Source: Octopus vulgaris (Eukaryota). Taken from it: a stretch of DNA of 64,000 nt. The stretch is taken from positions 992,001 to 1,056,000 of the forward strand of contig OX597836.1 in the NCBI GenBank assembly GCA_951406725.2. The letters are read 5' to 3'. This document shows, in pieces, positions 9,336 through 61,787 of this stretch (within the stretch, counting starts at the first letter, position 1; every line of letters begins with the position of its first letter). Made by a program: the position numbers and the translations under genes. The notes below the pieces were generated by a model. It made no database searches. It was given only the letters and a program-made list of their open reading frames with translations, and was not told where the DNA came from.

Positions 9336-10356
9336 ATGATGTTTTATGATGTTTTTGCAGATTTAATAATAAGGTACACACACACACACACACACTTATG
9401 ATACATCACATTATATTATAATATATATAATCTATGGAAAAATTCTTTTTTTTTTCAGTGATTGAAATCGAACCCACGACCTCATTGTAATTATGCAAGT
9501 TTTTGTCTCAAAATTTTCTGGAATGATTTAAAGCTTTCTTCGCAATATAGTTTCCTGTTGCAAATAAAATGTAACGAAATAAATAAAGAAAACTCGCTTG
9601 GAAATATGAAAAACTTTTACAATAAGGATAAAAGTAGAGAATGGCTTTGTCGGTAAAACAGCCTCCGTTATTCACACACGAGTGTGTGTGTGTGTGTATA
9701 TGTATATGTATTCTTCACTCAAGCACACGCACAAGCATGCGTCAGTGTGTGTGTGTGTGTGTTTTTCGGGGTGGAGTGTCTTTTGTGTTTTGTTAAGATA
9801 TCTGTGACTTGTCTGTCGTCTGGAGATGTTGAACGATTTAGATACCATCTGTGACAGGGAATTACTTGTAGGGGCACACCCCCACCCCCACCACCACCAC
9901 TTTTGTAGCAGATGCGTCTGTAACAATACCACCAGCAGCAGCAGCAGCAACAAGAACAATGATGGCTACGGTAAGAAGAACATCGCTAATAAGAATCTGA
10001 AGAAACGGCATCGTTGGTTTTTTGTCCTTTTTGTTTTGTTTTTGTGTCGTTGCTAAGAAGTGACTCCACAGCAACGAACCAATCAGCCAATTAACCAGTA
10101 ATTAACCAACCAACCAACCAACGTCGCATGCTAGTAAAAGCAAGCGATGCCAATGACAAAGTTTTCGGCTCTGTGGTTCTGTTGTCTTCCGAATTCCTTC
10201 CCTCAACCTTTGGGTCCTTTCCAGGGGTTTTACCTTTCAAAATTCTCTTTCACTTTGTAAACACGCGCGCGCATGCGCAGACACTTTTGTTTTCCATAAT
10301 GCGTGCGCATGTTCGTGCGTGTGTCTGGGGCTTGTAACTGTGTTCCTATGCGAGAA

Positions 10357-10660
10357 GGCGCCTGGTTTAGTGCTTTGTATATTCGGCTTACGATCGCAAG
10401 GCTGTGAGTTCGATTCCAGCCGGTGCGTTGTGTTCTTGAGCAAAACACTTCATTTCACTCAGCTGGCAAAAGTGAGTCGCGCCTGCAATTCAAAGACTCA
10501 GCTTTGTCCCGTTCTGTGTCACGCTGAATCTCCCCGAGAACTACGTTAAAGATATGCAGGTCTGTGGAGTACTCAGCCACTTGCATGTTTATTTCTCGAG
10601 CAGGCTGTTCCGTCGATCAGATCAACTGCAACAGTCATCGTCCCAAGCGACGAAGGGCCT
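10357..10660 (+). mobile_element. tRNA-derived SINE (family D-like head, CORE-like centre)
   Basis: GGCGCCTGGTTTAGTG (A box)...GAGTTCGATTCC (B box)...TTGTGTTCTTGAGCAAAACACTT shared with the 61280 copy; its 3' body differs from that copy. Confidence 0.8.
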
Positions 10661-13128: not shown

Positions 13129-15019
13129 TATCAAGCAGTAGTCTTCCATAATGCAACAATCTATACACTCATACACACAACTTGTCAGATCGACCAGTAG
13201 TTTTCGAGAGTAGATAGAGCAGACGGGCCAACAGCCGTCCACATCACAGGGCAAACAAGTTACACGGATAGAGCAAGACAGATATTCGCACGGCCAACCA
13301 GAACCACCAACAATCCTCCACAGCAGACGATCTGTCAGTCAAAACAAAAGCCAGACAGCCAGCCGGCCTTACACACACACACATCGAGCCATTCACACAT
13401 GCAGTGAACCACGCAGAGCCGTAATCATCCCCGCTCCCAGACTGACATACAACCAGACTGATCAATAGCTATTCTACCGCATACACAATGCCATACATTT
13501 AAATGGAGACACATTCAATTGAAACCAACTTAATCAGTTTAAAAGGAGATTCTAGCATTTTCGTATATCGCTGTACCATTTGTATGTCAGCATTTCTAAC
13601 ATCGTTTGTATAGCAATATGAGACTTAGCAATGGGACACATCTTAGCTGTTCTTATCTGCAACAGACATTCTCTGATCTTTAATCTATTCTAGTGAATTC
13701 TATTAGAGAACGTGTGTGTATGTGTGTGTGTGTACGAGTAGATGTATGTAGGTACACATAGGTGTGAAGGTGTGTATACGTGTGAAGTTATATATGAATG
13801 GATGTTGTTGCTTTTGTATTTCTGTGTCTATATTTGCGTGTGTATATAACCATTATATATTTAAGTATAGAGGTAAATACACAAACATGTATGGATATGT
13901 AAAGATTTATAATATGTTTGCACACACACACACACATGTATTATATACCTGTATGCATGTACATATATAAATATGTATATATATATATATATATATATAG
14001 GGTGAAAAGGAACACACGAGCTGATATATATGGAAAAACAAGTCAAGATAGAAAATGCTAAAATAATTTTATAAAGAACATTTCAGTACCGGTTTCAGTC
14101 ATTTTAAGACCTTTTCAAATGTAACGATTAAATAATTAAATTTTGAAAAATTAAAAGAAAAGTTTTTTTAAAGGAATATTTGTATAGTGTTCAAATATAA
14201 GTGGTATTTTCTTTGTTTATGCCTTTCTCTGTCTCTCTTGTTTACACTTGTGGGTTCAAGGTCGTTGTGAATTGTTGGTAGGGTAGAAGAAGAAGGATGA
14301 TGAGGAGAAGGGGGGGAAAAATTTGGGAGTGCCTTGATTGTCGTATTTTGAATGATCAGTGGCGGCTAGCAGTTGCAGTTCAATTCATGAGAATATTTCT
14401 ATTGAAAGGTTTGCTTATAGGATTTGCGTAGGTGTTATACTAAAAAGCATTAGTGATAAAGTTAAGAAGTAGAAGGTGGAGCAGAAGAAGAAGATGATGA
14501 AATATTCTCATATATATATATATATATATGCACATATTAGAGGTGACTCCAGGTCATCAGTATCACTCAGGCTTATCACAGATTTAGTCACTAGGGTTGA
14601 TCACAGATTTCACATAAGACACATGCCTGTTCGAAGAATTTCACGCTCCCCCCCCCCCCGCAATATTTCTAGCCCTAATGGTTTATTTTTTTATATCTAG
14701 CACTATGTCTTTCTCCATTTCAAAGTTTTTATGGGGTCAGTTTTAATTTATAGACTAGTTTATCAAAGCCCTTGTATATCTAAGGCTGAGAGAAAAGAGG
14801 GCAGTATCTGTTAGGGGTAGGGCTGGGGGAGCAGACAGACATCATAATTGGTTTGGTCATAAAAATCAAGATTTATTAGAAGCAATATCATGAGGTTTGG
14901 TAAAGGAAAACTTAAAACAAGATGTCAGCTGACAATTAAGGGGGTGCCCACTAGCAGACCATTGATAATGAAAAAGGGGGAGTCTTATCATGTAGTACTA
15001 TAGTTAAATATTTTAAACA

Positions 15020-16382
15020 ATGTTGCTATATTGTATATAGTTAAAATTTAGGGTTATTCAGAGGATTATCAAGAAGAATATTATAACAAAAGGATAGAAA
15101 TTTATGAATACTTTTGAGTATATACAAACTTTTACCACAATAGAGGGAAGAAAAGAAATTATCCAGAAATAGTTTAATATTTACACATATTGTATACTAT
15201 ATACTAACTCATCAGATGGTATCTGTGAATATTGATTAATCGGTATGTACTGGTATTAATAAAGGAGTACTGGGGTAACGGAACATGGTAATTATATTTT
15301 TATTTTATTTTATCTAGTTTCAGCTCACGAGCTGTGGCCATGCTGGGGCACCGCCATTTTGCTGGGGCACCACCATTTAAATATATATTAATAAAATAAT
15401 AATCTAAGCATTTTTTTTTTATATAAGTAGAGAATATACCAGTATAGTTTTATACAAGATAAGTATGAATTTATAGAGATACAAAAATTAGATTAATTTC
15501 ATAAATAAATAAAGGCTAATTATAAAATAATAAAGAAATAAAATAAAGTAATCAAGTAGGGCAGAACACCATAGAAAAGGAAATAAAATAGTTTAATTGC
15601 TAATACTATGGTATAGTAAATGTAACTTATTAAGACCAACAGAGAAGATTTTTAGAAAAAGTATAAAAATTCAAAATATATTAGACTAAAAATTATATAT
15701 TTACTTATTTAGCTAATATCAGTAAAAGACTGATGTTTGGTATCGGCTAAAGAAATATTTAAGTTATGGGACAATCATATTTTGCACTAATCTTTTTTTT
15801 AAAAAACTAAGGGTCATATTATAGGTTTAAGAAGTTATTATTATTACTCCCTACATGATATTTATAGTTTCTCAGTGGTACTTGTTTAGAAGGGTTATTT
15901 ATATAAAGGCCCTTATAAATACTAAGTTCAGGAGGGTAGAGCCATTTAAGAAAGAGATAAATCAAGTAATTTCTAAAGATCATTTCAAACAATATTGTCT
16001 CATTGTATAAAGTTAAAATTTAGGGTAATCAATTAGGGTAATTAAGAATGAAATTTTAACAAAGGGATAAAACTTCTTTGAATATTTTGAGTATTTACCA
16101 AACTTTTACCACAATAGAAGGATGAAAAGAAAATTGAAAAAGAAATAGTTTAATATTTATTTACTTATTACTTATCTAAATATTAACTTATTTTATGGTT
16201 TCTATGGAGATTAATCAATTGGATTTAATAAGGAAGCAACTGAGGTTAAAGAACATGTCAACTCGATACGGATTTAATTAAATTGAATTATTTTAAGTTG
16301 TCGAGATACTGGTGTTACCTTATATAAGCTGAGTATGAATTCATAGGGGTACAAAGATTGGATTTATTTAAGGCTACTATGA

Positions 16383-16417
<35 letters not shown>

Positions 16418-17090
16418 CAATAATAACAATAATAAAATGATCAGTTAGGGTAGCACATCATAGAAAAGGAATAAAAACAGCCTAATCACTAAAAACCATA
16501 GCAAAATATCCATTCCTTATTCACTCTAATAACAAGTATTTATAGAAAATGCATAATAATTTAAGTATTATGAGCTAAAAATTGTTAATTAACTTATTTA
16601 GCTTATTATAATCAGGACTGAAACTTAAAAGGTATAATATAGATTTTTAAAGTTGTGTTAATCCATAAATGATATTACAGTTTCTTAGGGGTACTTAATG
16701 AGAAGGGCTGTTTGTATAAAGCCAATAAACATACCAAAATTAAGAGGATGGAACACTTTAAAAAAGGGATAAAAAACTTATTTACTGAAACTATTTTAAA
16801 CAAAACGTCATTATTGTATAAAGTTAAAATTTAGAATTATCGGGAAGATTTTTCATTGAGGTGAGAGAACAAATTTACTATAAATTAGTGAAAATTATAA
16901 TTTAGACAGTTTAATGTTAAGTTGTGAAGATACCCGCATTGTTTTTTATAAGCTAAGTATGGATTTATAGGGGTACAAAAATTTAGGTTTGTCTAAAGGC
17001 AATTATAAAGTATTAAAATGATCGGGTAGAGTAGAAACACCATAGAAAAGGATATGAAATAGCTTGATCCCTAAAACCATGATGAAGTAT
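15020..17090. repeat. Diverged tandem triplication of an AT-rich unit of about 0.6-1 kb
   Basis: Anchor TTGTAT(A/T)AGTTAAAATTTAG at 15031, 16003 and 16814; anchor CATAGAAAAGGA at 15570, 16459 and 17041; AAACTTTTACCACAATAGA occurs twice. Confidence 0.75.
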
Positions 17091-24530: not shown

Positions 24531-25110
24531 AGGCGTCCACCAGCCCTTCAATGTCTTCACTGTCGACATCCTGCCCTATATTCTTTCCCATAGAGACAAT
24601 ATGATCAACAATAGCAATTTCCTCGACAGCAGCTCTACTTGTAGCCGTCTCAAAACCCTCAAAGTTTCGTTCTGGTACACAGTCTGGCCAATGTTTCCTC
24701 CATGTTGGATTCGTGGTTCTCTAACTCATTTGGTTCCAAGCGTTATCAATAAGATTTACACAATTCAGGATATTGAAATGATTTTTCCAAAATCCTCTGA
24801 GAATTAACTGAGTGTCATTAGGGACTTGAAAACACTTTCGAAACAGGGCTTTTGCGTAAGGTTTCTTAAAGTTTGCAATGGCCTGTTGGTCCATTGGTTG
24901 TATTAGAGAAGTTGGGCGAGGTGGCGGGAGTTTGACCTGAATAAAATCAAACTCTTCAACTACGTCATCCTCCAGCCCTGGAGGGTGAGCGGGAGCATTG
25001 TCTAACACGAGAAGTTTCTTTTTAACACTCGTGGCAAAACTTCATGAATCCGCTCAATAAAAAATTGTCTGCTTACCCAAGCCTTCGTATTAGCCCGCCA
25101 CGTAATAGGC
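24531..25110 (-). mobile_element. pogo/Tigger (TIGD1-like) DDE transposase remnant
   Basis: Minus-strand peptides WRANTKAWVSRQFF and LDNAPAHP...TSLIQPMDQQAIANFKK...NCVNLIDNAW are typical of pogo/Tigger DDE_1 domains; contains stops and deletions. Confidence 0.9.
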
Positions 25111-25882: not shown

Positions 25883-25931
25883 TACACACATTTGTATGTA
25901 TATATGTATGTTTGTATGTGTATATATGTAT

Positions 25932-29156: not shown

Positions 29157-29192
<36 letters not shown>

Positions 29193-29354
29193 TAATAATA
29201 ATAATAATCTTTTCTACTTCGGGCACAAAACCTAAACTTTTGGGTAGTGGGGTAATCGATTTAATCGACCAAAGTATTAAACTGAGAAACAACGAAAAGT
29301 TAATAAATAATCAAATTAGTGGATGCTACAAGTACGAATGAGCACGTTTACGTA

Positions 29355-30974: not shown

Positions 30975-31145
30975 TAGGCGAAGGTGGAAAGTCAATTACA
31001 TCGGTTCCGGTACTTGACTGGGATTTATTTTATCAACCCCGAAAGGATGAAAGGCAAAGTCGACATCGGCAGAATTTGAACGCAGAACATAAAGAACCAT
31101 AAACAAAGGTGTTCAGCAATAACGATTCTGCGAGCTTGCGGCCTT
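30975..31145 (-). mobile_element. SINE family B
   Basis: CCCCGAAAGGATGAAAGGCAAAGTCGACATCGGCAGAATTTGAAC is the reverse complement of the family B core. Confidence 0.85.
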
Positions 31146-34937: not shown

Positions 34938-35450
34938 AGGCGCAGGCCTGGCTGTGTGGTTAAGAAACTCCCTTTGCAACCAGAGAGGCTCGGATCTCAT
35001 TCTGTGTAGTCCCACAGTGCAGCACATTAAGCCTGTGTCTTCTAGTATATTCCTGGGCCGACCAATAGCTTGTAATTGAATTTAGTATACGAACGGAGGA
35101 GGAAACTGACTGAGAGAATATATATATATATATATATATTCAGTGCTCCAGCACGGTCGCAATCCAGTAACAGAGACAAGTGAAAGGAAAACAAAATAAA
35201 GAGAATGCCACACTGTTTTCCAATGCCGTACAATATTCCAGAACTCTGTACAAGAGTCTAAAATATTTCACAATGGTTCATAATCTTGATTTTAACTCTT
35301 GGCACAATGCCAGCAATTTCTGGGGAGGAGGTAAGTTGATTACATCGACCCCAGCATTCCGTTGGTACTTCTTTTATCCACCCGAGACGGATGAAAGGCA
35401 ATGTCAGACCTCTGTAGAATTTGAACTCAAAATGTAAAGACAAGCGACAG
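34938..35450. mobile_element. Degenerate SINE A copy (34938-35180, +) and SINE B copy (35300-35450, -)
   Basis: GGCGCAGGCCTGGCTGTGTGGTTAAG head; GGATGAAAGGCAATGTCAGACCTCTGTAGAATTTGAACTC core. Confidence 0.7.
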
Positions 35451-42031: not shown

Positions 42032-43380
42032 TTATATGGTATATGTAAGCCTTATAATCCTCTAGTGTCCTCAACGCAAGAGTTTAATTTTAGGGAGGTT
42101 GCTGTTGTTTCTAGCACGTCAAATAAATGCACAGACCAACCCCATTGTTGTTGTTTGAGCTACTCATTAGTCTTGACGAAGCTGACCCCTAACCAAATAT
42201 ATCCGTGACGTCATTATTCTATTTGTCCCGAGCAGTGTGGAATGTCTAACACAACATGGTCATAGAAACTGTTCTTTGTTTTTGATAACGGAAGAAAGAC
42301 CGTAGCTGCTGTTTCTAGCATGTCGAGCGACCTTTGAGAGCCACAGCCACTGACTCGTTAAGTGGGCTTAACAGACAATATTGATTCTGGGAGGTCGAAT
42401 TACAAATGTATCTATTTGTGTGTTGAGTGAAATATACACCCGTTCATTTCATATAGATATTTGTGTAATCGTAAAGAATATCAGAATCGATTAGAAATCG
42501 ATTTATAATGATGATGGCACACCAAAACACTAAAATAGTTTATAAACCATTAACCGAAGCAGTAAACTGTTTAAATTATTTATGAACTTAGACAATATAT
42601 TACATTTGTTGTGAATGTGTATGTATGTGTCTATGTGTGTGTGTATATTTTCTGCTTTCAATTATTTAAATTCCGCCCCCGAGGAAGGAGTTTGTTTCTA
42701 AAAAAGACAGAAAAACTCCACCGTTGGAATGTAGATAACAAAAACACTCGTATTTTGAAGTTGAAAAAATTTTTGCATATTTTTGCAGTTCCACTTACTC
42801 ATTGCATATACAATGTACGAGCTTGGTGGTTGATTTCCTTTTCTGAAGACTTTAGTTCATCCAGATTGTCACTTAGGGGTTTACTCACAAAACCAAATGT
42901 GCCAATTATTATCAGTATAAACGTGAATTTATAATCTGAGTATAAAAGCTGGAGGTTTCGAAGCAGCTGTCCAGTTATTCTCCTTCTCTTTAATTTTTGG
43001 GAAATCTCCAGTAAGTCGGTACGTTCCTATACCAGTAAAACTGCTAAAATATCTTTCATTGTATCCATAGCGTACATTTCTGAACAGACATATTGAGCAT
43101 GGCTTTAAAAATTCATTTTATATTAGACTTATATCAATAAATAATATACGCGTCACAAAGTATTTTGATTTCAAATATTAAATTGAGAAATGTCAATACG
43201 CTTTTCCGAAAGTATTTGCTGATTGAAGACAAGATATAAACACCCAGGGAAGATGCATCGCACAGTTGCACTACGTAACACACGACCATACTGACAGGAA
43301 GCTTCAAAATGTCTGCTACAGACAAGCAGAGAAGTCTATGTCGCACTAACGACCGTTACATTGATTGTCATATCAAAACA

Positions 43381-43530
43381 AGTTTCAAAGGCTGTCATAG
43401 CCGGGAGTGGTAGCAGGGATAAGCTCCCACTGCCTACAAAGTGCTCCCACGGCGTGCGTCTCAAATAGCCTCTGACAGTCAAGTCCAACTCCTGGTCTTC
43501 CCGCGTCGAAACTGTTCCCACTAACAGGAG
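43381..43530 (+). ncRNA. Putative HDV-like (CPEB3-type) self-cleaving ribozyme, possibly degenerate
   Basis: P1 AGTTTC (43381-86)/GAAACT (43508-13); P2 CTCCTG (43489-94)/CAGGAG (43525-30); P3 GTC/GTC (central mismatch) around L3 TTCCCGC; GT after P1'; J4/2 CTAA with candidate catalytic C43521. Manual threading only. Confidence 0.6.
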
Positions 43531-44092
43531 AAGGGGGCAAAGGCGAGTCACTGGCGCCTTAAAACCAGTTGCTTCGGGTAGTTGGGATTCGATAGCCTTG
43601 ACTGGCAGCCGAACTAGGAGAGGGAAACTCCGATTTCAAACCTCTGCTGCCTTGCGGCAAGACCCCCTCTTCGGGAAGGCTAAGGGAGTAAACCCCGACA
43701 GAAAATCCGGAGCTGGAGCCTCTAAGGCGGCCTGACACAACACGTCATCACCGGCAACTCCTGCGACACATCTGGTACCAAGCTGTATCGACCCGTCGTT
43801 CCCTTGAGGCTGCCAGCTGCGTGGAGAGGGGGGGGATCAAACTGCATAAGCAACAGCTGATCCCTCATACAAACCTGCCCAGGCCTTGTAGCTCAACAGG
43901 AAGAGAACCAGGCGAAAGGAACAGCAGCAGCAGCAACCACAGCTCTCATCCCCTTTCTCTTGCACCAGATGTGGTAGGGACTGCCACTCGGTGATTGGTC
44001 TGCACAGCCACACCAGGAAGGGCAGATAAACCCGCCACCTTTTCCGAGCTTCATCATCGTCTCTCGAGACGGACGGATGCCGACGACGACGA
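43381..44092 (+). mobile_element. Bipartite non-autonomous RTE-clade retroelement (5' UTR fused to ORF C-terminus and 3' UTR)
   Basis: 12-bp TSD CATATCAAAACA at 43369-43380 and 44093-44104; 43892-44029 encodes RKRTRRK...FSCTRCGRDCHSVIGLHSHTRKGR*, the zinc-finger-like C-terminus typical of RTE ORFs; ends CATCGTCTCTCGAGACGGACGGATGCC(GAC)n; no RT or endonuclease coding sequence. Confidence 0.88.
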
Positions 44093-44282
44093 CATATCAA
44101 AACAGGAGATTGGTAAAGAAATGTTTGGTGCTAGTTATTCGCCATTACACGTGTTTCATTTGCTAATGGGAATTACAAAATTATACATCTAGAAGAGACA
44201 TATTAAATATCTCCTACTAAAAATTCTCCAGAGAATCAAATAATTCAATTATCATTGTTATTATCATCATAATCATCATTGC

Positions 44283-44472
44283 AGCGATGAGCTGGCATTT
44301 CGGCTTAGCGACATTTCGTCTGTCTTCATGTTTTGAGTTCAAATTCTGCCGAGGTCGACTTTGCTTTCCATCCTTTCGAGGTTGATGAAATAAGTACCAG
44401 TTACGCACTGAGGTCGATGTAATCGACTAGCCCCCTTCCTCCAAAATTTTCAAGACCTTATGCCTTGAGTAA

Positions 44473-44475
<3 letters not shown>
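44283..44475 (+). mobile_element. SINE family B
   Basis: GAGCTGGCA...GAGTTCAAATTCTGCCGAGGTCGACTTTGCTTTCCATCCTTTCG...AAGTACCAG, (AAT)n tail. Confidence 0.88.
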
Positions 44476-44507
<32 letters not shown>

Positions 44508-45099: not shown

Positions 45100-46266
45100 G
45101 TTTGTTACAGTCACTTGCCGAGACACACCCAGTGTCCTGGGGCGAGCGAAGGATAAAAGATATTACAGTATGACTGAAAGCTTGGGAAGGGAGGTAGCGA
45201 AATGTCTTCATGTAATACAACACAGACTTTTAAATGGATAGGGTTTTTCCAAGGATGTGGGCAGTAATTGTCAGCACAATCTTTTGGATTTCTCCGAGAC
45301 ATGGTTCTCTTGGGATCTTATCTAGATATTTCTGACATCTCTTTCTTATCATACCTAGAACATTCACAATAACAGGAACAGTTCTCGTTTTAAGATGCCA
45401 CATCTTTTGTATTTCAATTTCCAGGTCCTTATATTTACTTAGTTTATCAAATTCTTTGACAGGTATATTTTTATCAGTGGCAACACATCTATTAGTCTAC
45501 AAGTCTTTTCTTCTCTGTCTTTAATAATCATGTCCAGTCGATTAGCTTGGATCGTTCTGTCAGTGTTGACTGGAAAATAACATTTTTACCCCCAACGACT
45601 GCCTCGTGCCAGCAAGCAGAAATGCTGCTGATTGTGTAGTGTTTACATATTTTTCAACGTTAATACTGTCCTACCCTATCCTGGCGATTTTGCATTCGTT
45701 AGTTGCCAGCACAGGGCATCCCGAGACGAGATGCTCTATTGTTTCGCTAAATGTGTTGCAGAATATGCATTTATGGTAGTTTTTTTTTTGTGAGCAAGCT
45801 TTGTTCTTATGCCGCCAATATGAGACATGCTTTCAGTCCACAGTTTCTCAGCCATTGATGGGCTGTTGTTTGGTCTACATCAGCATTTCGACTTTGAAGT
45901 ATATACTGTCCATGCAGGGGCTTCTGGCTCCACCGCCCCTCAATTTGTTTCTGCCACCGTTCTTTTTTGCAGTTTGCTTGATCCATTTTGCTTGCTTTTT
46001 GGCAGTGGTTTCAGGTTCTTCAACTATTTCATGGTTAATACCAAGTTCCCTTACGAATGTGCAAGCTTCCTTTACAATAGAATGGGTTTTTTGCTGCTTC
46101 GTGTTTGCACACCAGTCGCGGGGTCCAGTCTTCTGAATTAGGTAAATACCTGTTTATTGCTATTGTGGAGGTTTTACAGGACAATTCTACCTGCATCATT
46201 CCTCTTCCCCCATTACATCTAGGTAGATACAGACGATTAACATTTGCTTTTGGGTGGTGCATGTTC
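45100..46266 (-). mobile_element. R4/Dong-like RLE non-LTR retrotransposon, 3' part of ORF (decayed)
   Basis: Minus strand HHPKANVNRLYLPRCNGGRGM (post-RT motif), CIFCNTFSETIEHLVSGCPVLA (CCHC knuckle) and KLSKYKDLEIEIQKMW (RLE); multiple frameshifts; (AAT)n at the 3' end. Confidence 0.9.
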
Positions 46267-47145
46267 TTAGAAAGAGAGAAAGATCTCCTCGTTGAAGTAA
46301 AACTCCGGAAGAAAACCAAAACTTTCAGATAGAAAGGATCACGAAAGTACAAAACTATTGCAAAGCTTAATGACCACCTCGAGAACCCAGTTTCCAGGAT
46401 AACTGTTCGCCGGGAGCTGCAATCAGAAAACCACTACTTTCAAAAACAAACGTTGCAAAGCGCTTAGAGTGGAGTAAAAACCTACAGAATTGGTCCCATG
46501 GAGCAGTGGAAGAATGTTATTTTCTCGGGCGAGTCATCCTTTACCTTATTTCTGACCACCGACCGAGTATACGTGTGGAGACAGCCACAAGAAGCATTTG
46601 ACCCAGACTACCTTATTCCAACTGTTAAACATGAAGGAGGGTCTGGGGGCCTATATCTTGGAAATCTGCTGGCCCAATGGTTTCCCTTCAAGGCAGAATT
46701 AATAGTCAAGTCTATTTAAGCATTTTATCTGATCAAATGCATCCTATGGTTGCGGAACTGTTTCCGGAGGTAAAGTCAGTCTTTCAGGATGATAATGCAT
46801 CAATACATACAGCTGAAGTTGTTACTGAATGGCACAGGGAACATTCTAATGAAGTTGAACATCTTATCTGGCCACCACAGTCCCCAGATCTCAATATTAT
46901 TGAACATTTATGGTGCATTTTAGGAAAACAAGTAAGGAGTCGATATCCTCCACTATCATCACTACAAGAACAGGAGACTGTTTTAGCTGAAGAATGGACA
47001 AAAATTCCTTGGGAAATAATTCAAACTTTGTACGAGTCTATACCTCGTAGAATTCAAGCTGTAATTATTGCCAAAGCAAGTCCTACCCCATATCAAAATA
47101 AATCTGTTTGAAATTTGAAGGTGTTCCCATTATTTTGTCCACCCC

Positions 47146-50799: not shown

Positions 50800-50965
50800 T
50801 AATCCTTTCTCTTATAGGCACAAGGCCTGAAATTTTGTGGGGGGAAACTCGTTGATTACATCGACCCCAGTATTTCACTGGTACTTTATCGACCCCAAAA
50901 GGATGAAAGGCAAAGTCGACTTCGGCGGAATTTGAACTCAGAACGTAAAGACAGACGGAATGCTC
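50800..50965 (-). mobile_element. SINE family B
   Basis: AGGCACAAGGCCTGAAATTTTG...AAGGATGAAAGGCAAAGTCGACTTCGGCGGAATTTGAACTC. Confidence 0.88.
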
Positions 50966-59641: not shown

Positions 59642-60290
59642 TAGCTCACTTCCGCTTTTTACAGCAGTGCTTGGAAAGAACGTGTGTAGCGTGTGAAGGT
59701 CGCATTGACCGTGACCGAGAAAGTTGTCATGGCGATACCTGCTTAGAGGTCAAAGCAAAACTGCAGAAAGTGTAATGAGAAGAGTGTCTGAGCCACACAC
59801 GAGAGTACGAGTGGTGCAGGCGTTACTAAGATGGCCAAAAAAATGTCGATATTAACGAACGTTGTGGGAGACACACAACCAGCAGAACGGAGAAAAACAC
59901 ATCGCTAATGTGCGTGCAGCTGTGAGGGGAAATCGTCGAATCCCCATCCGTGAGTTACCAAAGGATGTGCAGATTACTTACGATTCAGTTCAGTCCATCA
60001 TCACTGAAGATTTGGATATGAGATGCGTGTCTGCCAAGTTTGAGCCAAAACTGCTTTCAGCTGACCAAAAGACACTCGGGGTTTCAGTTGCACAAGATCT
60101 CTTTGATTGTGTCGAGAACGATGAAATCTTTTTGAAAACTTTGCGTAGGCCTCTGAGCAGGTATCGCAAAAGTGTGGCAAAATTTGATGCAGATTCTCTG
60201 CTCAACTTCCTCTGTCATGTTCAATGCGACGATCACACGCTACACACCTTCCTTCAAAGCACTGCTGTAAACAGCGGAACTAAGCTAGAA
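59642..60290 (+). mobile_element. mariner-derived fold-back element built from two 5' ends
   Basis: The plus strand encodes the transposase HTH region (VRGNRRIPIREL...VQSIITEDLDMRCVSAKFEPKLLSADQK); the right arm read on the minus strand gives MTEEVEQRICIKFC; arms about 59642-59770 and 60128-60287 are inverted copies. Confidence 0.85.
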
Positions 60291-60330
60291 TATTAAAATT
60301 TAGTGCATATGCATAGCATGTATATGTATA

Positions 60331-61197: not shown

Positions 61198-61279
61198 TAT
61201 ATACATATAAATATGTATATATATATATATATATACACATATATATCTATATACATATATATATGAAGGCGCATGTGAA

Positions 61280-61620
61280 GGCGCATGGCTCAGTTGTTAG
61301 AGCGTCGAGCTTACGATCGTGAGGTTGTGAGCTCGAATCCCGGACCGGGCTGCGTGTTGTGTTCTTGAGCAAGGCACTTTATTTCACTTTGCTCCAGTTC
61401 ACTCAGCTGTAGAAATGAGTTGCGACGTCACTGGTGCCAAGCTGTATCGACCTTTGTCTTTCCCTTGGATAACACTGGTGGTGTGGAGAGGGGAGGCTGG
61501 TATGCATGGGCGACTGCTGGTCTTCCATAAAACAACCTTGCCCGGACTTGTGTCTAGGAGGGTAACTTTCTAGGTGCAATCCCATGGTCATTCATGACCG
61601 AAGGGGGTCTTTACCCTTAC
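61280..61620 (+). mobile_element. tRNA-derived SINE family D with CORE-like centre and RTE-derived body
   Basis: A box TGGCTCAGTTGTT, B box GCTCGAATCC, central TTGTGTTCTTGAGCAAGGCACTT; 61421-61550 aligns to 43762-43890; 3' hairpin GGTCATTCATGACC. Confidence 0.9.
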
Positions 61621-61787
61621 ATATATATATATATACACACACATATATATCTATATACATATATATATATACATATAAATATATATATATAGATATTTAT
61701 ATATATACATATATATCTATAAAAATACATATATATATATACATATATATCTATATGTGTGTATGTATGTATGTATGTATGTATCTA

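Follow-up and report, generated by a model that had tools for sequence, protein, structure and literature searches.

Why do short derivatives of RTE retrotransposons retain part of the parental 5' UTR? PMC5786205 poses this as an open question. Bipartite RTEs, namely RTE-N2_Lch, RTESINE1/2, WALLSI3, MAR4_MD and, by proposal, Bov-A, consist of the 5' and 3' ends of an RTE, with the ORF deleted and without a small-RNA head (PMC5786205), and bipartite derivatives are frequent among RTEs (PMC5786205, PMC7245038). The R2 SIDEs (PMC3414825) and the trypanosome RIME and NARTc elements are internally deleted LINEs headed by an HDV-like ribozyme; they end in the 3' recognition sequence of the parent and are mobilised in trans. 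Ribozymes have already been predicted in RTEs as well (PMC5786205). The element described here, with its predicted ribozyme head, can be likened to both kinds, and since both have been described, the element type is already known. At 712 nt it compares with 195-470 nt for the RTE-N entries (PMC5786205 Tables 1-2), and unlike the listed bipartite RTEs it keeps 42 ORF codons, derives from another parent group and is known here from a single copy. The R2 SIDEs depend on R2/R1 proteins and insert site-specifically into 28S rDNA, whereas the element described here is RTE-derived and lies in unique AT-rich DNA. The best explanation of the locus as a whole, to which we give a probability of roughly 0.7, is one copy of a non-autonomous bipartite RTE derivative with a predicted ribozyme, which would be copied in trans.

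The window, by which we mean the whole 64-kb stretch analysed, is AT-rich eukaryotic DNA laden with microsatellites. The GC content of the element is 56%, against 35-36% in its 500-nt flanks (Table 1). The preliminary description had bounded 712 bp by a perfect 12-bp target-site duplication, and this holds: the identical 12-mers at the two ends are absent elsewhere in the window on both strands. Pairs of 12-mers 400-1000 nt apart are not rare in the window (68 overlapping pairs, in about seven places), but here the left copy adjoins the predicted ribozyme cut and the right copy the tail. The phase of tail and duplication is ambiguous. The (GAC)n tail read previously is possible as (GAC)4 with an 11-bp duplication, but (CGA)4 with a 12-bp duplication reads equally well, and a published relative terminates in CGA (PMC7846101 supplement). 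The T run about 10 nt upstream that is an RTE insertion signature in PMC6007223 was not evident by eye, and a single site is uninformative in this respect. No host gene or exon was found when 218 frames were compared with Pfam, which returned only two DDE transposase fragments, so that read-through transcription at this locus is unsupported. The fragments lie at 46635-47111 (+) and 24724-25041 (-) (PF13358, E 5e-13, and PF03184, E 3e-12).

Table 1. Features of the internally deleted RTE element, in window coordinates
Feature	Position	Strand	Basis or remark
Whole internally deleted RTE element	43381..44092	+	712 nt; duplication and comparison with relatives
Left target-site duplication	43369..43380	+	12 bp; its first base can also be assigned to the tail, which leaves 11 bp
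Predicted ribozyme cut	between 43380 and 43381	+	immediately 3' of the left duplication
Predicted P4-less HDV-like ribozyme	43381..43530	+	descriptor searches; by-eye covariation
P1 (predicted)	43381-86/43508-13	+	6 bp
J1/2 insert, P1.2-like closed helical domain (predicted)	43387..43488	+	102 nt; 3-nt and 8-nt linkers
P2 (predicted)	43489-94/43525-30	+	6 bp
P3 (predicted)	43495-97/43505-07	+	central U-U mismatch
L3 (predicted)	43498-504	+	7 nt
P1.1 partner (predicted)	43514-15	+	
5-nt linker replacing P4 (predicted)	43516-20	+	
J4/2 (predicted)	43521-24	+	predicted catalytic C at 43521
Conserved RTE 5' UTR domain, RTE-derived half of the Ceph domain	43576..43642	+	by-eye match to OegopSINE
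Further RTE 5' UTR	43643..43901	+	RTE-12_AMi match, SINE alignment, collinearity with RTE-Snek_1 entries
Deletion junction	43900..43901	+	probable 1-2 nt microhomology; by-eye comparison with RTE-Snek_1 entries and ORF lengths
C-terminal 42 codons of the RTE ORF, with stop	43901..44029	+	basic stretch and zinc-finger-like motif; without start codon
3' UTR with 5-bp hairpin at 44058-44071	44030..44080	+	pair probabilities 0.82-0.96
(CGA)4 microsatellite tail	44081..44092	+	sequence read
Right target-site duplication	44093..44104	+	identical 12-mer

The RTE-type C terminus recognised in the preliminary description was confirmed. The stop-to-stop frame 43892-44026 had three relatives among five candidates (best 74%), and the ORF remnant is 74% identical to the protein P0001 over 43 residues. 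A second search, with P0001 as the query, retained 54 of 106 candidates, most of them endonuclease-reverse transcriptase proteins of 1041-1050 aa on 3.4-4.5-kb contigs; one RTE-protein relative is named after C. elegans F52C9.6. A C-terminal motif is common to 47 of the 58 collected RTE proteins and the remnant, in which two conserved residues are replaced, V standing for an R found in 44/47 relatives and G for a C found in 46/47, and these substitutions indicate that the remnant is decaying. The stem-loop CGTCTC-TC-GAGACG proposed earlier survives as a hairpin of 5 bp with a 4-nt loop, its sixth pair having a probability of 0. Across 44055-44089, 35 nt are identical to the end of an RTE-Snek_1 entry (PMC7846101 supplement). 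Ten nucleotides at 43453-43462 are complementary to the hairpin strand 44066-44075; a long-range 5'-3' pairing of the two was rejected, its probability being 0 in the whole-element ensemble, and the folding energy of the whole element is unremarkable (z -1.13).

The segment previously called 5'-UTR-like can now be assigned to the RTE 5' UTR by matches, judged by eye, to RTE-Kret, RTE-Snek_1, RTE-12_AMi and RTE-3_BF. RTE-Kret is collinear with the element from base 1 (98/114 columns over the first 113 nt, hand count), and the RTE-Snek_1 entries of clownfish and catfish are collinear with its 5' end by eye (PMC7846101 supplement). Farther in, the Ceph-type domain matches OegopSINE, which is printed with RTE-3_BF, at about 52/70 columns, and 43675-43730 matches RTE-12_AMi at 52/56 columns, both by eye (PMC5786205 supplement); that domain is all that AviRTE has in common with the element. 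The block 43762-43893 aligns with a SINE at 61276-61622 with a score of 106, against 55.5 for the best of 1000 shuffles. This SINE (+) is tRNA-headed, with A-box-like and B-box-like motifs at 61286 and 61331, carries the UTR block in its body, and ends in a 5-bp RTE-type hairpin that differs from that of the element by changes on both sides of two pairs; a partial second copy of its head lies at 10354-10459.

In two relatives the UTR homology reaches as far as the counterpart of base 43901, while homology to the ORF begins at the Lys codon 43901-43903, which together place the junction at 43900-43901 with probably one or two shared bases, rather than near 43890 as first proposed, and leave 42 codons and a stop instead of the last 45 codons. 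The clownfish entry has 350 nt of UTR between the junction point and the Met that starts most of the predicted proteins. The deletion thus removed about 1000 codons together with about 350 nt of UTR, some 3.35 kb of about 4.05 kb (the RTE-Kret entry has 3967 characters), and the relatives thus indicate an autonomous partner of about 4 kb, not 3 kb. No full-length autonomous partner was found within the window, and the sequence of another possible partner, RTE-2_OV, was not found in the supplement files of PMC9115989 that were examined. By sequence comparison, the parent is a ~4-kb RTE LINE belonging to the RTE-Kret/RTE-Snek_1 group, whose nearest Repbase elements are RTE-1_DR and RTE-2_PM (PMC7846101); the first ~520 nt and the last ~190 nt of that parent make up the element. 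The element shares with that group the collinear 5' UTR, the C-terminal motif and the 3' 35 nt, and differs in lacking the ~3.35 kb. The bipartite RTE origin proposed at the outset stands, since both true termini are kept, agreeing by eye with those of full-length relatives out to the terminal bases, and the ORF between them is removed. Horizontal transfer of RTE-Kret and RTE-Snek_1 into snakes is documented (PMC7846101), and RTE UTR blocks are conserved across animals in any case (PMC5786205).

Other constructions of the junction were considered and rejected. An ORF start at 43876-43887 (CPGL), a frameshift near 43900 and three extra ORF codons upstream all fall because the block is UTR in the relatives. 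A tRNA-derived filler is ruled out by the UTR match, the A-box-like 12-mer at 43889 being itself UTR-derived and at chance level (two in the window against 2.3 expected). An N-terminal extension of the protein P0016, tried as a link to the UTR, was insignificant against the element (97/300 and 25/60 shuffles) and significant against the SINE only (0/60). The searched sequence contains no tRNA gene and the element no B box, in agreement with the earlier statement that there is no Pol III head, and the element is not a SINE of the SINE2 or SINE3 kind, whose defining mark is a Pol III head derived from a small RNA and bearing A and B boxes. The hammerhead core CUGANGA is absent from both strands of 43281-44200.

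What occupies the head of the element instead is predicted to be a P4-less HDV-like ribozyme formed by the first 150 nt and cutting at the first base. The order P1-P2-P3-L3-P3'-P1'-J4/2-P2' of the nested double pseudoknot is present with a purine at +1, as are the L3 pattern TYYHCG*Y and the J4/2 pattern CNRA with the catalytic C (descriptor of PMC4870747 Fig. S11); three Watson-Crick pairs in P3 are not, the central pair being U-U, and neither is a match to the Rfam HDV, CPEB3 or drz models. Rfam gave no match at gathering score in the window, and two weak unrelated ones for 43250-44200. Thus, of the 5' ribozyme proposed in the preliminary description, the fold gains support from descriptor searches and covariation, while recognition by Rfam is lacking. 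A first descriptor, which we wrote after the sequence had been seen, found a single match over both strands of the window, and any match in 1/3000 shuffles. The published RNArobo loose-P4 descriptor (PMC4870747 Fig. S11), interpreted from PDF text, found none in its strict form, owing to the P3 mismatch and a J1/2 longer than 50 nt. Relaxed twice, to a J1/2 of up to 150 nt and one P3 mismatch, it found one match with the catalytic C in 128 kb (both strands), with P1 starting at 43381. The false-positive descriptors with A, G and U at the catalytic position found 0, 0 and 1 core, and among 5000 shuffles the relaxed descriptor found two with any match and none at the boundary. With the core fixed, the P1 partner falls at the boundary in 10/20000 shuffles.

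The J1/2 insert folds at -34.1 kcal/mol (z -1.88), 7 of 200 shuffles being equally good, and P1 is present in both the minimum-energy and the centroid fold of 43381-43530. When 50 nt of upstream flank were added, the flank paired with J1/2 and the probability of P1 was 0.02, in nested folding without pseudoknots. The flank at 43355-43372 resembles the first 18 nt of the element (43382-43399) at 72%, so it can compete for pairing with J1/2. On account of the P3 mismatch, we file this copy as an HDV-like fold with a lesion and not as a proven member of the class. The U-U in P3 may have crippled it to a weaker cleaver, and the odds that the ribozyme modelled here is active in this copy are slightly worse than even.

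The case is stronger for the lineage, in which we think it highly probable that a P4-less HDV-like ribozyme, as modelled, is active. The fold is kept, by eye, in all three full-length relatives, RTE-Kret and the clownfish and catfish RTE-Snek_1 (PMC7846101 supplement); the covariation was likewise judged by eye, on these and the element, and four related sequences are a small set. The first pair of P1 is A-U in the element and G-U in RTE-Kret and clownfish; the clownfish P1 differs at three pairs with pairing kept, two of them changed on both sides, and the four visible bases of the catfish P1 pair, its entry being cut 2 nt into the helix. The inner P2 pair is G-C in the element and A-U in RTE-Kret, with one P2 mismatch each in RTE-Kret and clownfish, and P1.1 is U-U and C-G in the element and clownfish, G-C and C-G in RTE-Kret and catfish. 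The catalytic C with CNRA, the L3 consensus and the 5-nt linker instead of P4 are found in 4/4 sequences, and the central P3 pair is C-G in the three relatives, against U-U here. The clownfish and catfish entries have an extra hairpin of ~20 nt that follows L3 and precedes the 3' strand of P3, absent from the element and RTE-Kret; we know of no peripheral domain at that position.

It is unlikely, though of the alternatives this one survives best, that the short form is a family whose fold is not used catalytically but serves protein binding or translation of the parent, with transcription driven by a Pol II promoter inside the element. In this copy the mismatched P3 and the competing flank would suit such a role, as would the failure to match Rfam, and R2 HDV-like folds double as IRES and protein-binding sites (PMC6765202). 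However, the catalytic C and the L3 and J4/2 patterns have been retained throughout the four sequences, and P1 starts at the 5' terminus of the element, likewise with base 1 in the clownfish consensus, and with base 4 in RTE-Kret, which argues for a ribozyme that cleaves.

How does the predicted ribozyme compare with known ones? P4-less HDV-like ribozymes are reported to occur almost only (nearly 99%) in tailed phages, the eukaryotes searched being human, mouse and protists (PMC10879173). By eye, the 6-bp P1, 6-bp P2, 3-bp P3 and J4/2 are shared with the drz-Mtgn-1 and theta ribozymes of that study, and a 7-nt L3 with one base different and a short loop replacing P4 are shared with drz-Mtgn-1. 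Unlike the minimal gut-phage ribozymes, the element has a 102-nt structured J1/2, a P3 mismatch and an animal retroposon as host, and its fold is predicted. In drz-Agam-2-1, too, J1/2 is structured and forms a domain that closes between P1 and P2, where it activates the ribozyme (PMC4908430), but the element has neither the P4 nor the extended P2 of drz-Agam-2-1. The word ribozyme does not occur in PMC7846101, which describes RTE-Kret and RTE-Snek_1.

The mechanism that we propose draws on the known biology of RTE, R2 SIDE and L1Tc elements; the anatomy is read from the locus and cleavage at 43381 is predicted. A source copy would be transcribed by Pol II, either from a promoter in its own UTR or by read-through, and the ribozyme would trim upstream sequence off the transcript. 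An RTE protein acting in trans would bind the 3' hairpin and (CGA)n tail, and probably the conserved 5' UTR domains also, nick the target, and use the RNA as template for target-primed reverse transcription. Being short, the template could be copied through to its 5' end, so that the new insertion would be complete and flanked by a duplication. The copy described here has drifted, with U-U in P3 and two changes in the dead ORF remnant, and may cleave poorly.

The target duplication does not tell an amplified family of the short form from an accident of one locus, as it would survive equally if a full-length copy had lost its middle after insertion. We consider a family quite probable. In its favour, RTEs commonly give rise to such derivatives (PMC5786205, PMC7245038), and neither functional end of the element is truncated. 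The tRNA-headed SINE leaves the common UTR block, by eye, ~10 nt beyond the 5' breakpoint of the element and before a different RTE-type hairpin, and the proximity of two independent breakpoints suggests a selected boundary. Long RTE-Snek_1-like matches number 29 and 18 in two Octopus assemblies under the thresholds of that survey (PMC7846101); if long copies are this few, a given 64 kb would seldom contain a full-length copy that happened to lose its middle. Against a family stand the unstreamlined 190-nt 3' part with its 42 useless codons, longer than the 40-90 nt 3' parts in PMC5786205 Table 1, the decay, and the single copy in the window, where BLASTN returned only the element itself, the SINE block and short simple repeats. 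These same observations fit the next alternative, in which a full-length RTE was inserted and later lost 3.35 kb by DNA deletion at the 1-2 nt microhomology, leaving a dead single locus: the duplication would persist unchanged, one copy would be expected in the window, and both P3 and the ORF remnant could decay around codons never streamlined away. It is unlikely, slightly more so than a family with a non-catalytic fold. Two rare events would be required, a 5'-complete insertion and then a deletion sparing both functional ends, and the apparent scarcity of long copies in Octopus and the nearness of the breakpoint to that of the SINE (within about 10 nt) also speak against it. Least likely of all is a one-off template jump, in which the reverse transcriptase, still close to the 3' end of a full-length RNA, switched to its 5' UTR and the product was inserted as a unit and never amplified; such jumps have been proposed for SIDE formation (PMC3414825) and are compatible with the intact ends, duplication and short microhomology, but the same rarity argument applies and the breakpoint common with the SINE is left unexplained.

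Searches for further members of the proposed family beyond the window came back blank. The junction-spanning frame had one match among 1.84 billion representatives, at 32% and of low complexity, which was rejected, and a second search with it gave 0 of 2 candidates; these blanks say little, since the collections hold no close relative of the ORF remnant either (best 74%). In GTDB genomes, an exact 19-nt scan gave no hit. A protein-profile scan of GTDB gave 19 loci of 51 candidate stretches, on host-derived reverse transcriptase contigs; none overlaps the element at the DNA level (best E 0.40), and Rfam on 7 of the 19 matched only microRNA models on a tandem repeat. Four of these loci (L001, L002, L003 and L009, from Alcanivorax profundi and two MAGs) are short contigs with animal-type RTE proteins of 58-80% identity to the query. 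The RTE contigs in bacterial records are probably host contamination.

Other repeats share the window. An abundant SINE at 44283-44480 (+), which we presume to resemble Octopus SINEs, has relatives at 25931, 29167-29270, 30980-31095, 35323-35442, 49132, 49322 and 50816-50962, the copies being 71-87% identical. The region 14900-17080 is AT-rich (~30% GC) and G-skewed; in it a decayed unit is repeated about three times at a spacing of ~800-980 nt, and short broken minus-strand frames recur. The frame at 59856-60296 (+) we take to resemble the N terminus of a mariner-type transposase, and that at 46035-46433 (-) presumably resembles a LINE reverse transcriptase fragment; neither has a Pfam match.

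In the literature searched, most subscription papers, Repbase and Dfam lying outside it, we found no account of this element or of an RTE ribozyme without P4, and none of octopus ribozymes or internally deleted mollusc RTEs. Ruminski et al. 2011 would be the likeliest earlier report of such a ribozyme. A broader proposal, put forward tentatively and with the balance of probability against its holding in every part, is that the RTE-Kret/RTE-Snek_1 lineage, represented in an octopus-type host, a sea krait and bony fish, has an active, undescribed HDV-like ribozyme with a P4-less core and a 100-nt J1/2 domain, joined in some members by the L3-P3 hairpin; that the 712-nt element is an amplified family; and that its breakpoint near that of the SINE marks the end of the cis module for an RTE protein acting in trans. 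As a natural two-ended template with a defined breakpoint, the element would indicate which UTR blocks suffice. RTE-based gene writers carry their payload between the cognate 5' and 3' UTRs, and the sufficient UTR blocks bear on their design (PMC13708176). The part of the finding worth testing is the P4-less ribozyme: if the prediction is true, a P4-less ribozyme that is conserved in animal retroposons, covaries naturally and can carry either of two peripheral domains would broaden the HDV-like family.
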